In this document: piece by piece, positions 26,413 to 44,700 of the stretch | Layout: each line of letters opens with the position of its first letter | Numbering within the stretch: the stretch's first letter is position 1 | Assembly (NCBI GenBank): GCA_965205505.1 | Contig: CBDBHB010000009.1 | Coordinates: 1,696,001 to 1,760,000 of the forward strand | Length of the DNA: 64,000 nt | Reading direction: 5' to 3' | Source of the DNA: Acidobacteriota bacterium | GTDB lineage: Bacteria; Acidobacteriota; UBA890; WLXD01 | Program-made: the position numbers and the translations under genes | Notes under the pieces: generated by a model | The model's input: only the letters and a program-made list of their open reading frames with translations | Database searches by the model: none | Told to the model about the DNA's origin: nothing

Positions 26413-28019
26413 GCGGTGGTCACTGGCTCGAGCGGCCAGGTGAAAACGAAGGTGGCGCCTGGGCCGGGCGGAGACTGCACCCAGATCCGCCCCCCGTGGC
26501 TCTCCACCACCCGCCGGCAGATCGCCAGCCCGATACCGCTGCCGACGCTCCCGCCGGCGCTTGTGAAGAGGCCGAAGATCTGCCCGGCCTGCTCGGCGCT
26601 GACGCCAGGCCCGTTGTCGCGCACCCGGAACAGCCAGTGCGAGGACTGCCGCTCGCCAGCGACCGTGATGCGTGGCTCGGCCTCACCTCGGTGCCGGATG
26701 GCGTTGCCGATGAGGTTCTGGAACAGCAGCGTCAGGTGGTCCCGATTGCCTTGAATATGCGGCATGGGTCCTACCTCGACCTGAGCCCCGCTGTCGCGGA
26801 TCGTGGCCTCCAGGTTGGCCAGCGCCGTACGAACGACCTCGCTCGTGTCGACGTTCTCCAGCTCATCGGAGCCGCCCACCTTGGCGTAGCGCAGCAGCCC
26901 CTCGAGCATCGCGGCCATTCGCGCTGAGGCGCGGCGTGCCGGTTTGAGGTGACGCTCGGGGAGTCCCTCGAGGTTCTGCTCGGACAGCAACTGCAAGTGC
27001 ATGTCCACCACGTTGAGCGGCTCACGCAGATCGTGCGAGATGACGTGGGCGAAACGCACCAGGTCGGCGTTGGAGCGTTCCAATGCTCGAGCCCTCTGCT
27101 CGAGTGCCTCCTCGGCGCGCAGCCGAGCATCCGCCTCGCGCTCGACCTCCGCGATCATCTCGGCCTGCTTGGTACGGAGTCCCTCGGCCTGCCCTAGACG
27201 CACCGCGGACCCCAGCAGCATAGCGAAGGCCAGGCCGCCGATGAGCACAGTGGTGGGCAACGCCGAACGTAGGCTGGCAAGCGTCGGGGGCGTGGGCCAG
27301 ACGTCGATCGCCAGTTGAACCCCCTGGAATTCCACGTCGCGACGGCGGACCCACTCCGACATCGACCCGTTCGGATCCCCGTCGCGCACGAAGAAGCGAT
27401 TATCGGCGCTACCGATCGCCAAGGCGTAGTCGTTGCCGAGCCCGGCGGTGGCCGCCTGGGCAAAGGCCGAGGCATCGTAGACGCAGATCATCGCCCCGGC
27501 CGCGCCGGTCTCGAGGACTACAGGCACCCGCACCGGTACCACCGGGTCGCCGCTCGGCCCCTCGGTGACCGCCATCATGCGTACCGCCGACAATCGGCTC
27601 CCCGGTCGCCACGAGGCCGCGTGCTTGATAACCCAACCCTCGACGAGGGGCGTGCTCTCGGCTCCGTCGGCGTTGATCGACCACAACAGCTCTGCTCGGG
27701 GTGAAAGCCACAGAACTCGGTCGACGGCCGGCGTCCGAAGCAGCACGGCACTCTCGACCTGTGCCATCGTCTCGCTCAGACGCGTCAGGCCAATCCAGCG
27801 CACGGTTGTGCGATCGAGTCCATCGCGGGTGTCCTCTAGCCGGGTTCTCACGTGGGCCGCCACACTGTCGGCCTCCGCGTCGATGAGCCTGAAGACACGC
27901 TCGCGCTCGCCATCAAGCGCCGATTGCCACGCTACAACGGTGAGCGCAGCAAGCCCGGCCACCACCAGGACGGGCAGCCACGGCCAACGTCTCCCGCCGC
28001 CACGATATGCAACGATCAT
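26391..28019 (-). CDS. Membrane sensor histidine kinase
   Basis: Two TMs, SHDLREPL H-box, QNLIGNA, DNGPG, GSGIGL. Confidence 0.92.
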   Translation of the reverse strand: MIVAYRGGGRRWPWLPVLVVAGLAALTVVAWQSALDGERERVFRLIDAEADSVAAHVRTRLEDTRDGLDRTTVRWIGLTRLSETMAQVESAVLLRTPAVDRVLWLSPRAELLWSINADGAESTPLVEGWVIKHAASWRPGSRLSAVRMMAVTEGPSGDPVVPVRVPVVLETGAAGAMICVYDASAFAQAATAGLGNDYALAIGSADNRFFVRDGDPNGSMSEWVRRRDVEFQGVQLAIDVWPTPPTLASLRSALPTTVLIGGLAFAMLLGSAVRLGQAEGLRTKQAEMIAEVEREADARLRAEEALEQRARALERSNADLVRFAHVISHDLREPLNVVDMHLQLLSEQNLEGLPERHLKPARRASARMAAMLEGLLRYAKVGGSDELENVDTSEVVRTALANLEATIRDSGAQVEVGPMPHIQGNRDHLTLLFQNLIGNAIRHRGEAEPRITVAGERQSSHWLFRVRDNGPGVSAEQAGQIFGLFTSAGGSVGSGIGLAICRRVVESHGGRIWVQSPPGPGATFVFTWPLEPVTTAQPSSER

Positions 28020-28036
28020 CTGTTACAGGCCACTAG
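28014..28036. repeat. Half copy of the CTAGTGGCCTGTAACAGAT palindromic repeat
   Basis: GATCATCTGTTACAGGCCACTAG shares an identical 17-bp arm with the 39558-39592 palindrome. Confidence 0.75.
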
Positions 28037-35976: not shown

Positions 35977-37328
35977 CGTGGTGCGTCGATCCACAGGCCG
36001 TGCGCGCCGTCGATTTCCCCTCTGTCGTAGATGCAGCGGCCGCGCAGAAATGTGGCGACTACCCTGCCACGCAGTGCCATCCCCGCATAGGGAGTGTCGG
36101 GGTGCCGGTGAAACAGCGCGGCGGGGTCGACGCGGAACGATGCGTCCGGGTCGAAGACCACGAAATCGGCATCGAGGCCCGGGGCGATCGAGCCTTTGCG
36201 ATGCTCGATCCCGGCCAGGCGGGCGGGCTCTGTGCACATCCAGGCACGAACCCGGTCGAGGTCATGACCGCGCTGGCGCGCCTCCGTCCAGATGAGCGCG
36301 AGTCCGAGCTGCAGGCTGGCTATGCCGCCCCAGGCGCGGCAGAAGTCACCGCTGTCGAGACACCTCAATTCAGTGGGGCAGGGCGAGTGGTCCGAGGCGA
36401 TGAAGTCGATAGCGCCGGCGCCCAGCGCCCGCCAGAGTGCCTCGCCGTTGGCTCTCTCACGGATCGGTGGTGCGCACTTGAACTGGGTGCCTCCATCGGG
36501 CACGTGCTCCGCTGCCAGCGTCAAGTAGTGGGGGCAGGTCTCGACCGTAATCGGCGTGCCCGAGCGTCGCGCAGCGGCCAGCAGGGGGACACAGCTGGCA
36601 GCCGACAGGTGCACCACGTGGGTGTGGCAACGAGAGCTCTCGCTGAGCGCGATCAGGCGCTCTATCGACGTGTGCTCTGCGGCCTCCGGCCTGGAGGCGA
36701 GATAGCTGCTGTATGAGCTCGGTGAGTTCTTCAGGCCGCACGAAGCGGCGGCGAGCTCCAGATCGCCGGGGTCTTCCGCGTGCACTAGAAGCGGCTTGCC
36801 CCGTGGCACCAGCAATTCGGCGGCGCGCTCCAAGTCTGCATCGGACAGAGCGGGGAAATCGTCGAGGCCGGAAGAGCACAGAAAGCACTTGAGCCCGCGC
36901 ACCCCGGCATCGAGCAGATCCTCGATGTGATCCCGGTTACCTGGCACGACCCCGCCCCAGAAGCCGTAGTCGACGCTACACTTGTCCGCCGCGGCCTCGA
37001 TCTTGGCCCGCAGCGCCTCCGCAGTGGTGGTTACGGGCGAGCTGTTGAGCGGCATGTCGATGATGGTGGTCACTCCGCCCGCCGCCGCCGCCATCGAGGC
37101 GGTCTCGAAGCCCTCCCAGTGGGTGCGGCCAGGCTCGTTGACGTGCACGTGCGGATCGACAAGGCCCGGGAGCAGCCACAGATTGTCGAGATCGTGCCGT
37201 TGGGCCGCCGTAAGGCTGCCGGCATCGGCGATGATCTCGACGCACCCGTTTCGTACCCCGACGTCGGCTGCCTGAACGCCGCCCGGCAATGCGACCCGGG
37301 AGCTGGTCAATACGCTGTCCAGCTGCAT
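35973..37328 (-). CDS. allB: Allantoinase
   Basis: DPHVHVNEPGRTHWEGF, DMPLNS, ETCPHYL, SDHSP, AWGGI. Confidence 0.95.
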   Translation of the reverse strand: MQLDSVLTSSRVALPGGVQAADVGVRNGCVEIIADAGSLTAAQRHDLDNLWLLPGLVDPHVHVNEPGRTHWEGFETASMAAAAGGVTTIIDMPLNSSPVTTTAEALRAKIEAAADKCSVDYGFWGGVVPGNRDHIEDLLDAGVRGLKCFLCSSGLDDFPALSDADLERAAELLVPRGKPLLVHAEDPGDLELAAASCGLKNSPSSYSSYLASRPEAAEHTSIERLIALSESSRCHTHVVHLSAASCVPLLAAARRSGTPITVETCPHYLTLAAEHVPDGGTQFKCAPPIRERANGEALWRALGAGAIDFIASDHSPCPTELRCLDSGDFCRAWGGIASLQLGLALIWTEARQRGHDLDRVRAWMCTEPARLAGIEHRKGSIAPGLDADFVVFDPDASFRVDPAALFHRHPDTPYAGMALRGRVVATFLRGRCIYDRGEIDGAHGLWIDAPR

Positions 37329-37395
37329 GCAAGCAGGGTACAGTTCCCGTGATCCGGACGTCCCCGTCTACCATGGCCTGTCAGGAGTTCCACCG

Positions 37396-38157
37396 ATGAA
37401 GTTCCGCCTTGCCGTGCTGCCGTTGGCACTTACCACCGCCCTCCTTGGATGCTCGACGCAAGATCAAGACGTCGCCAACGTCGCGAGCGACGACGCGATG
37501 GCGGAACCGGAGCACGGTGACGGAGAGGTCGCCGCAGACGACGATCACCACGGCGAAGGCAGAACGAACCGTGATCATTTCTCCAAGCCTGACCAGGTGT
37601 ATGCCTTCCTGGGCATCGGTGTCGGCGATCGCGTTGTCGATGTCATGTCAGGGGGCGGCTACAACGCCGAGCGACTCGCTCACCTGGTGGGAGAAACGGG
37701 CGTCGTCGTGGCCGAAGGCGGCAGCGAGGAGTTCAGATTCCGCTTCGACGAGGGCGGTGATCTGGCGACCGCGGGCAACGTCCGTTTCGTCGAAGACCTC
37801 GCCGAGCTGGAGGACGGCAGCCTCGATGCCGTGGTGGCCGTTCGTGCGTACCATCTCTTCCCGGACGTGCCCGCGACCCTCGCCGAGCTGCACCGCGCCC
37901 TGGTGCCGGGGGGAGTCGTCGGTGTGGTCGAGGTGCGTCTGAATCAGGCCGAAGGTCACGATATGGCGTCGCATCGTGTCGGCGAGGGAACCGTCATCGC
38001 CGACCTCGAAGCGGCGGGGTTCGAGTACGTCGGCGAGTCGGATATCTTGAAGCGCGACGACGATGACTACGCGGTCTTCATTCAGCCGGGCAAAACTCGC
38101 TACATGACCGATCGAATGTTGCTGAAGTTCCGCAAGCCCGGAGGCGCCACCGACTAG
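37396..38157 (+). CDS. Lipoprotein SAM-dependent methyltransferase-like
   Basis: LLGC lipobox, VVDVMSGGGY, LVPGG, TDRMLLKFRKP. Confidence 0.8.
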   Translation: MKFRLAVLPLALTTALLGCSTQDQDVANVASDDAMAEPEHGDGEVAADDDHHGEGRTNRDHFSKPDQVYAFLGIGVGDRVVDVMSGGGYNAERLAHLVGETGVVVAEGGSEEFRFRFDEGGDLATAGNVRFVEDLAELEDGSLDAVVAVRAYHLFPDVPATLAELHRALVPGGVVGVVEVRLNQAEGHDMASHRVGEGTVIADLEAAGFEYVGESDILKRDDDDYAVFIQPGKTRYMTDRMLLKFRKPGGATD

Positions 38158-39559
38158 ATGAGATGAGAAGGCCAACCTCCTGAACGCAGTAGCCTGACGG
38201 CTCTGCAAACGTTTCTTCAAACGTAACGGGCTCGAAGCCCAAGGAGGTTGGCCGATGAGGAGTGTAACGATTGGACTGGACGTAAGCGACCGGTACAGCC
38301 GTATGTGCGTGCTCGACAGTAAGGGCAGGGTGATGGAGGAAGGGCGGGTGAGGACGAGCCCGGAGGGGCTGGCGAGGCGGTTCGGGTGCGAGGAGCCCGC
38401 TCGAGTAGTGCTGGAGGTTGGAACGCACTCGCCGTGGATGAGTGAGCAGTTGAAGCAACTGGGTCATGAGGTGCTGGTGGCTAACCCGAGGCGGCTGAAG
38501 CTGATCTATGGCGAGCACGGACCGACCGGTTGGATGCCGAGCACCTGGCACGAGTGGGCAGAATGGACCCAAAGCTGCTTAAGACGGTGCAGCATCGAGG
38601 CAGACAAGCGCGAGCGGATCTAGCCGTGATTCGGAGCCGAGATGCTCTGGTAAAGAGCTGCACGCAGTTGGTGAGCCATGTGCGTGGTGCGGTCAAGTCG
38701 GCCGGTTGTCGTATTCCCAGGTGCTCGACGCCGGCGTTCGCGCGCACCGCGCCAGAGCACATACCGGAGCGGCTCAAGGGAGCGCTCGAGCCGGTGCTTG
38801 AAACGATCGCCATGCTGACGGGCAACATCCAGCAATACGAGCGTCAGATCGCGCAGCTGTGCCAGGGGCGATACCCGGAGACACAGCAGCTCCAGCAAGT
38901 GGCCGGGGTCGGAGCTCTGACCGCACTGGCGTATGTGCTGACGCTCGAGGAGCCGGAGCGGTTCAATACCTCCAGAGCCGTGGGCCCGTACCTGGGACTG
39001 AGACCGAAGAAACGGCAGTCGGGGGACAAGGACCCTGCGCTACGAATAACCAAGGCGGGCGACAAAATGCTCCGACGCCTGTTGGTGGGCTCGGCGCATT
39101 ACATCCTGGGCCCCTTCGGGCCCGATACTGAGCTCAGACGCTGGGGGCTCAAGCTGGCCGGACGCGGTGGTCCTCATGGCAACAAAAAGGCAGCAGTTGC
39201 TGTCGCCCGTAAGCTCGCCGTTGTGCTGCACCGACTGTGGCTGAGTGGAGACGAGTACGAACCGTTGCGCGCACCTGTAGAGGTTTCAGCAGCATGAACT
39301 AACCCGCAACCAGGAGGTCGGTAGGGCGACGCGACCCAACGGTTATCGATCTGACCGCCCGGTCCGGGCGACTGCGAAGGTCACTACGAGCTTCGAGCTC
39401 GGCAGCTAGATTGCAGCGCCTCGAATCGGGACGGACCCCAGAATGCACCGGACGACCTGAATCCTCGTCCACCAGAGTGCGAATAGGAGCATGGCGTGCA
39501 GATCGATTCTTCGCTGGGCACCACATTGCCCTTGACCGAACTAGGCCTTCTCTTAGAAG
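38158..39559 (+). mobile_element. IS110 family, IS1111-type element; transposase 38255-39297 with a frameshift at ~38515
   Basis: DEDD residues (IGLD, VLE, TDRLDA), RQSG, AVARKL; subterminal IR GAGAAGGCC/GGCCTTCTC; AG at both junctions. Confidence 0.9.
39298..39543 (+). ncRNA. Candidate bridge/seek RNA region of the IS1111-type element
   Basis: ~250-bp non-coding end downstream of the transposase with several hairpins, the position expected for IS1111-type guide RNAs. Confidence 0.6.
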
Positions 39560-39592
39560 TGGCCTGTAGCAGATGATCTGTTACAGGCCACT
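39558..39592. repeat. 35-bp palindromic repeat (IS target)
   Basis: AGTGGCCTGTAGCAGAT-G-ATCTGTTACAGGCCACT, arms match 16/17. Confidence 0.85.
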
Positions 39593-39619
39593 CGCAGGCC
39601 GTGGTGAAAGTGTGGCCTG

Positions 39620-44700
<5,081 letters not shown>

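Follow-up and report, generated by a model that had tools for sequence, protein, structure and literature searches.

What determines where an insertion sequence of the IS110/IS1111 family inserts, and can its target be read from the element itself? This question is raised by the element at positions 38158–39557 of a 64,000-nucleotide stretch of Acidobacteriota DNA (GenBank assembly GCA_965205505.1, contig CBDBHB010000009.1, positions 1,696,001 to 1,760,000), which is referred to here as the window. A preliminary description of the window had proposed that an IS1111-type recombinase inserts there into a palindromic genomic repeat, and that the 3′ non-coding end of the element carries guides for this target. 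Our analysis indicates that the element is very probably a non-autonomous copy of the IS1111 group and that the loop guides of an RNA encoded at its 3′ end specify the target CT-AG-TGGCCT. All features are given on the plus strand unless stated otherwise.

The element is 1400 bp long and is the form of a 1404-bp element with a 4-bp deletion. On the left side, the target bases CT and the core AG form CTAG (38154–38157, AG at 38156–57), and the junction reads CTAG and then ATGAGATGAGAAGGCC. The left end (38158–38173) consists of a 7-nt extension, ATGAGAT, and a 9-bp subterminal inverted repeat, GAGAAGGCC (38165–73). The partner of this repeat, GGCCTTCTC (39544–52), lies in the right end (39532–39557) between TTGACC (39532–37) and a 5-nt extension, TTAGA (39553–57), and the element terminates in ...GGCCTTCTCTTAGA at 39557. 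The right junction is composed of CTCTTAGA (39550–57), a second copy of the core AG (39558–59), and then TGGCCTGTAGCAGATGATC; the second core and the right target TGGCCT occupy 39558–39565. Excision of 38158–39559 in silico regenerated CTAGTGGCCTGTAGCAGATGATC, which contains CTAGTGGCCT. The restored site was identical to the reverse complement of 28014–28036 at 22 of 23 positions, with one base differing. This second locus is an unoccupied target on the minus strand, a solo end of a miniature inverted-repeat transposable element (MITE), with CTAGTGGCCT at 28027–36. The empty and filled sites differ by the element and one AG, with no further duplication. The excision and the match to the empty copy had both been put forward earlier, and every letter involved was verified; a filled target (38154–39565) and an empty one (28014–28036) do occur together in the window. 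In the genome of the window (9 contigs, 5.98 Mb), CTAGTGGCCT was found at 109 sites and CTAGAAGTGGCC at none, which indicates that AG is the correct shared core. The CTAG at the insertion includes the TAG stop codon of a methyltransferase-like gene (37327–38157), and this stop is preserved by the insertion.

We searched the same genome for other copies of the element using BLAST and found 27 full-length copies and several fragments with 98–100% identity. CTAG directly preceded the element at 24 of the 27 left junctions, was displaced by a small left-end variant at two, and was replaced by TTAG at one. At the 31 right ends, AGTGGCCT adjoined the element in 30 cases and AGTGACCT in one. The preliminary description would have been undermined by copies inserted at unrelated sequences, and these junctions (30/31 on the right and, with the displaced CTAG included, 26/27 on the left) speak in its favor and greatly exceed what chance would give. 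Among the copies, 26 different left flanks and 19 different right flanks occurred, in 27 different left–right pairs. Because all of the pairs are distinct, the copies represent separate insertions and not one duplicated block. Their orientation relative to the target was identical throughout. All of the copies share CT-AG-TGGCCT. In the right flank, positions 1–8 show little or no variation, a G occupies position 9 in 16 of the 19 distinct flanks, and the positions after it vary; in the left flank, conservation is confined to the last four bases. Conservation of the flanks ends where complementarity to the guides ends, and both loop guides were invariant in all 30 aligned copies.

The 3′ non-coding region (39298–39557, 260 nt) would encode the guide RNA. 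Consensus folds computed from three and from five sequences predicted a two-armed domain of 161 nt (39346–39506) with a closing stem formed by 39346–53 and 39499–506. In the five-sequence fold, compensatory change was seen at 13 of the 41 pairs predicted for the domain as a whole; the closing stem is maintained by such changes among the three closest elements and is weaker across all five. Arm 1 (39355–39434, 80 nt) is the predicted target-binding hairpin, with a stem of CUGCGA (39372–77) and UUGCAG (39411–16) and an apical hairpin at 39387–401; folded as a single sequence, it formed a long hairpin with a z value of −2.4. Arm 2 (39444–39481) is a hairpin closed by UGCACC and GAGUGCG, which has one compensatory pair and is otherwise invariant in its pairs. 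A 9 × 9-nt internal loop sits in arm 1 between the conserved basal stem and the apical hairpin, which carries compensatory changes. The guides are the two unpaired 9-nt sides of this loop in both the single-sequence and the consensus folds. The 5′ side, AGGUCACUA (39378–39386), pairs with the top strand T-AG-TGGCCT and forms eight Watson–Crick pairs and one G-U pair with TAGTGGCCT. The 3′ side, GCAGCUAGA (39402–39410), contains CUAG at 39406–09, a copy of the left target and the core that would be complementary to the bottom strand. Read 5′ to 3′, the segment matching the top strand comes first and the one matching the bottom strand second, and their matches overlap at the point of insertion. 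For the window element by itself, a weak pairing of 3 bp across the loop was predicted, with an unpaired probability of 0.27–0.40 at the bases involved. The two segments named in the preliminary description, GGTCACT (39379–85) and GCTAG (39405–09), are both present, and the top-strand guide is extended from 7 to 9 nt. That these segments might fall in stems had been named as a result that would speak against it; they form unpaired sides of the internal loop in the consensus folds of three and of five sequences. Their interpretation as target guides is also supported by the conservation of the occupied sites and by covariation with the flanks in four relatives.

These four relatives keep the RNA scaffold at 43–71% protein identity and carry different loop letters that match their own flanks. 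The element designated G011 comes from a member of the same taxonomic order (63–68% protein identity, gene interrupted); its 5′ loop CGGACUCUA forms nine of nine Watson–Crick pairs with TAGAGTCCG, and its 3′ loop reads GAGUAG. In L031 (43% identity), from a contig titled as a Myxococcota metagenome-assembled genome, the 5′ loop CACGCGCUU forms eight Watson–Crick pairs and one G-U pair with AAGCGTGTG, and the 3′ loop reads CUAAAG. L071 (71% identity), from a metagenome contig, has the 5′ loop UGUCCGCGA, seven of whose nine nucleotides pair with the right target, and the 3′ loop CACCUAG. The element of G129, a genome of the same phylum (56% identity, 4 copies), has the 5′ loop ACGACCUGC, which matches GCAGGTCGT at nine of nine positions, and the 3′ loop CCGCAG. 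Its target, CCGC-AG-GTCGT, was derived from the loops before the flanks were seen, and the flanks of the copies then agreed with it. The four copies, one of them truncated, always lie in the local repeat ...CCGC-AG-GTCGTGGAAGCGAGGGTCGTCGCGG (G129:C1, L212–L216), and the empty site CCGCAGGTCGTGG is present inside the same repeat.

The relatives came from several searches. A protein search of genome contigs with a single recombinase gave one distant relative, L031. A metagenome scan with a 17-nt scaffold word gave 80 loci that were fetched, one of which (L071) encodes a relative, the others being chance matches. A scan of 401 genomes of the phylum with the scaffold pattern gave only G011 and the four-copy G129 element as real hits, and most single matches were at the control level. 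The best protein identity in a plasmid collection was 36%. Distant relatives with partial matches (L034–L039, 30–50% identity), which are without the conserved basal-stem motif, were left out. A ‘handshake’ reading of the A after the core on the 3′ side of the loop was likewise dropped: in four of five elements this A agrees with the first base of the left end, but in G129 it does not, and it belongs to the pattern by which G129 was found.

To what does the conserved right flank belong? It is the terminal inverted repeat of a 272-bp MITE, a repeat that starts with GTGGCCTG. Searching the whole genome with this 25-nt repeat and at most 4 mismatches gave 142 matches, which form 38 inverted pairs, 23 of them spanning 271–273 bp. 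The units are short, non-coding, and present in many copies, and they have terminal inverted repeats and a flanking duplication, as is characteristic of MITEs. Each unit has CTA at one border and TAG at the opposite one, which fits an IS630-like TA duplication inside CTAG and an IS5/IS1182-like CTAG equally well. The target of the insertion sequence straddles the MITE junction: the host CTAG contributes CTA, and the MITE tip contributes GTGGCCT. Since the site spans both the tip and the host flank, the target occurs only where the MITE has inserted. Several right flanks share just about 8–15 nt with the MITE repeat. In the window, the remnant (39559–39591, 33 bp) is a palindrome in which one terminal-repeat tip of the 272-bp MITE is fused to the other. 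The preliminary description had called the target a palindromic repeat resembling the repetitive extragenic palindromic (REP) sequences; the 33-bp palindrome is indeed there, but the target is the tip of a 272-bp MITE together with its CTA flank and not a generic REP. A second small palindromic repeat (39594–39625; CAGGCC...GGCCTG around GTGGTGAAAGTG) directly follows the remnant, and sequences like it are found beside further copies of the element and further MITE ends elsewhere in the genome.

A sister MITE subfamily with ends starting GTGTCCTG is approximately as common as the targeted subfamily and carries no insertion. Sites with TGGCCT, which form the G-U wobble with the guide, were occupied in 30 cases and empty in 109. 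Sites with TGTCCT (CTAGTGTCCT), which give a mismatch, were found at none of the 31 right ends and at 87 empty sites. The contrast in occupancy between TGGCCT and TGTCCT was significant (Fisher p = 2e-7). These occupied counts were taken from the list of flanks; the ‘occupied’ count of the short motif includes chance matches and was not used. The base that differs faces the U of the guide at 39381 and TGTCCT sites are never occupied, which indicates that a G-U pair is tolerated and a U-T opposition is excluded. TGACCT, which pairs perfectly, was occupied once and empty twice; these numbers are too small for a preference for the perfect pair to be adopted. If the guide interpretation is correct, CTAGTGGCCT and CTAGTGACCT are expected to serve as targets and CTAGTGTCCT is not.

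The recombinase gene of the window copy is split. It lacks the ACAA that other copies have behind position 38519, and the resulting break lies just ahead of D92 and D95. The N-terminal fragment (38255–38623) has 122 codons, loses its frame after the deletion, and matches PF01548 with 26.6 bits, below the cut-off; the C-terminal fragment (38530–39297) contains PF02371 and the motif GLRPKKRQSG. The window copy is therefore non-autonomous, since it cannot produce its own recombinase. Twelve of the 27 full-length copies, each with a left flank of its own, carry the same 4-bp deletion, and five more full-length copies are damaged in other ways. An intact 348-aa protein is encoded by the remaining 10, with element lengths of 1402–1405 bp. 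This protein (P0001) matched NF033542 (‘IS110 family RNA-guided transposase’) with 206.9 bits against a cut-off of 140 bits, PF01548 with 64.7 bits, and PF02371 with 62.4 bits. Aligned with chain 9t56 of the ISCro4 transposase, it has D9, E54, D92, D95, and the SG of GLRPKKRQSG at the corresponding positions; the overall similarity to IS621 and ISCro4 is weak (E values of 4.5e-8 and 4.6e-9, respectively) and restricted to the C-terminal domain. The intact copy thus has the DEDD (RuvC-like) N-terminal domain and the PF02371 C-terminal domain with S/T-G by which the IS110 family is defined. The length of 348 aa is inside the range of 330–350 aa of the IS1111 group, the 9-bp subterminal repeats are inside its range of about 7–17 bp, and the non-coding sequence comprises 260 nt 3′ of the gene (39298–39557) and 97 nt 5′ of it (38158–38254), as in that group. 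Subterminal repeats, the long 3′ non-coding region, the protein length, and the specificity for both site and orientation place the element in the IS1111 group. The preliminary description had thus assigned the recombinase to the right family, but had not recognized that its gene is broken here. Most copies are unable to make the recombinase, yet their ends and non-coding region are intact; most likely, they have been moved in trans by the recombinase of intact copies.

Several further features concern the state of the copies. The right-end tip is TCTCTTAGA in 8 of the 31 ends and TCTCATAGA in 23, and 20 of 30 copies carry G at position 39518, the other 10 carrying C; these polymorphisms at 39553 and 39518 mark sublineages among the copies. 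In two sequencing runs, the depths of the element and its flank were 174 versus 4.6 and 187 versus 6.5; these contig depths are rough, and their ratios agree with approximately 30–38 copies. The element was absent from the four other genomes of the genus that were searched. A 95-bp piece (G000:C9:2875347–2875441) has the sequence of the element's left end and runs straight into a right-end-like tip, TTCTCATCTAGA; it has CTAG on its 5′ side and no AGTGGCCT after it, and may represent either a relic or a mini-derivative with an internal deletion. In two cases, a pair of oppositely oriented copies has one identical flank outside the MITE, the left one in the first pair (G000, C6:423092–424494 and C6:512432–513831) and the right one in the second (G000, C6:11751–13154 and C6:189959–191362). 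Such sharing points to a duplication, a rearrangement among copies, or an artifact of the assembly. Upstream of the gene, the leader (38171–38254) contains a perfect 11-bp inverted repeat with arms GGCCAACCTCC (38171–81) and GGAGGTTGGCC (38244–54), the second of which overlaps a GGAGG located seven bases 5′ of the ATG at 38255. This repeat is also found in the relatives G011 and L071, and to judge from its letters it would mask the ribosome-binding site in transcripts that contain the left end.

We propose the following scheme for the spread of the element. Intact copies would supply the 348-aa DEDD recombinase, and every copy would encode the structured RNA 3′ of the gene. The 9 × 9-nt loop of arm 1 would read both strands of the target, and the ribonucleoprotein formed with the recombinase would recognize the 10-bp CT-AG-TGGCCT. 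Recombination at AG, presumably with a circular form of the element as the intermediate, would leave AG at both junctions. The supply of targets would be provided by the 272-bp MITE, which creates the site on insertion into CTAG; sites of this kind number more than 100 in the genome. Copies with a broken gene keep their ends and guides and could be mobilized by the recombinase of the intact copies.

A number of observations weigh against parts of this scheme. The 9-nt guide match alone is only moderately unusual: of 2000 shuffles of the non-coding region that preserved dinucleotides, 24 did at least as well. This match is not decisive by itself, and the case for the guides rests on structure and covariation. 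The bottom-strand guide is just 4 nt long (CUAG; p = 0.04 for the contiguous extension and p = 0.26 for the total matches), and an extension past CUAG was rejected, since the occupied sites were not clearly nearer to GCAG than the empty sites. The register of the 5′ loop is shifted by one base in L071, where its pairing covers part of the right target and leaves out the core, and by one base in the opposite direction in G129. A guide for the left end, searched as the core plus the left-end tip on both strands with at least 6 nt and at most one G-U pair, was found in none of the five non-coding regions. No Rfam family was matched, and a permissive scan of 37800–39900 against Rfam 15 gave one chance-level match (Yar_2, E = 7.3). 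The motif of the circle junction occurred 0 times in the assembly, and no such joints were present in contigs of four runs, which could miss one. No sigma-70-type promoter passed the promoter scan; a conserved TTGACC resembling a −35 element lies 20 nt from the right end. Contigs of two RNA libraries (metatranscriptome runs X16 and X17) cover 38154–39578, from the element through its right end into the MITE; these could reflect outward transcription or DNA carry-over, as contigs of RNA libraries may contain DNA and cannot prove transcription, its ends, or its strand. Finally, the 4-bp deletion shared by 12 copies could have spread via gene conversion instead of transposition.

Could the target be chosen without any guide? 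A protein that recognizes a palindrome or hairpin shape would account for the palindromic target in the window, and the guide-like matches would then be coincidental, as the shuffling result for the 9-nt match might allow. Many occupied sites are non-palindromic, however, and have only CTAG and TGGCCT in common. Moreover, five related elements with non-homologous targets carry the matching letters in the same columns of the loop, one of them predicted blind, and a single G-to-T change separates 30 occupied of 139 sites from 0 of 87. We consider recognition by shape to be extremely unlikely. The same strong doubt applies to the spread of the insertion sequence and the MITE as one unit by duplication or recombination, which would give identical right flanks without site-specific insertion. 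Several copies do have long identical right flanks formed by the MITE, and the two copy pairs mentioned above share a flank outside it. Against such a joint unit stand the 27 distinct flank pairs among 27 copies, the 19 distinct right flanks, which include non-MITE sequences that agree only over AGTGGCCT, the 109 empty sites of the same kind, and a left junction that is always at the same base.

A closer alternative to the full guide interpretation concerns the ends of the element. The RNA may be a seekRNA-type guide for the target only, or at most also for the right-end tip, with the left end being read by the recombinase via the subterminal repeats; we regard this as possible, although somewhat doubtful. 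It agrees with the lack of a left-end duplex at a shared position in the five non-coding regions, in which the sole candidate, CUCGUC (39464–69), was discarded, being part of a conserved stem and missing from L071. According to Siddiquee et al. (PMC11187229), an 82-nt seekRNA with target matches alone supports the movement of ISEc11, and the binding of the ends is left unexplained; arm 1 (80 nt) and the whole domain (161 nt) are near the short and long forms of the seekRNA. On the other hand, a short or wobble-rich left-end guide could have escaped the scan at the thresholds given above, and Durrant et al. (PMC11208160) describe loops of the IS1111 group as complementary to both target and donor.

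A candidate for such a donor-side guide is AUAGGAG (39483–39489). In sense orientation it corresponds to the right-end tip ATAGA followed by the core AG, with one G in place of an A of the tip, and the T variant at 39553 costs the window copy one base of this putative match. The segment covaries with the tip in five of five elements, as a donor guide would: G011 and L071 have AUAGAAG with ATAGA, and L031 and G129 have AUGGAAG with ATGGA. The segment is short, and the two tip variants represent only one independent change; on this basis, AUAGGAG tentatively resembles one half of a donor-binding loop. It is conceivable, though in our estimation unlikely, that this clade uses three guides, a pair for the target and a single one for the right-end tip, versus four in IS621, with the left end recognized by the subterminal repeat, the protein, or symmetry. 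If so, the five naturally reprogrammed members and the occupied and unoccupied MITE subfamilies would form a ready-made data set on specificity.

On the RNA-guided interpretation with target guides in arm 1, which we favor, the element illustrates cleanly, in a natural setting, how an IS1111-type recombinase chooses its site, and it does so in a lineage that has received little study. The understanding of the mechanism is unchanged by it. What the genome offers is a set of filled and empty sites, a one-base contrast between MITE subfamilies, and, with the relatives, five elements with rewritten guides on one scaffold. The set could be a starting panel for the tolerance of wobble pairs, register shifts, and short left guides and for the recognition of the left end.

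IS4321 and IS5075 are said to reside in the terminal repeats of Tn21-family transposons, as reportedly described by Partridge and Hall in 2003. In Coxiella burnetii, IS1111 occupies the REP of QMITE2 (Wachter et al. 2018, PMC5896051). The present element resembles these insertion sequences in using the repeat of another mobile element, to which most of the copies are tied. It differs from the Coxiella IS1111 in that its site straddles the MITE tip and the flank, whereas the Coxiella site is a palindrome inside the MITE.

In the IS1111 family, the seekRNA has its match to the top strand 5′ of that to the bottom strand, with an overlap at the insertion point, and short forms of 82–96 nt and long forms of about 150–170 nt are described (Siddiquee et al. 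2024, PMC11187229). The window element is similar to ISEc11, ISPa11, ISKpn4, and ISPst6 (PMC11187229) in the 330–350-aa DEDD recombinase with a GL-P----SG motif, the subterminal repeats with an extension, the long 3′ non-coding region, the order and overlap of the guides, and the RNA sizes of about 80 and about 160 nt. Its relatives keep the stems and swap the target letters, as is seen between ISEc11 and ISXne4 (PMC11187229). In comparison with the ISEc11-type elements, the target is a different one, the bottom-strand guide of 4 nt is unusually short, and the evidence is computational. The element resembles IS621 (PMC11208160, PMC11208158) in having its guides in an internal loop, directed to opposite strands, with the core dinucleotide within both pairings. 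In contrast to IS621, the RNA is located at the other end of the element, the order of the guides is reversed, the core is AG and not CT, the longer guide is that for the right target, and there is only one candidate for a donor-side guide. A full-text literature search for ‘IS1111’ together with ‘miniature inverted-repeat’ returned nothing on this element. RNA-guided targeting by IS1111-type elements, including the use of the repeats of other elements, is known, its mechanism having been described in 2024; what is new here is this element.

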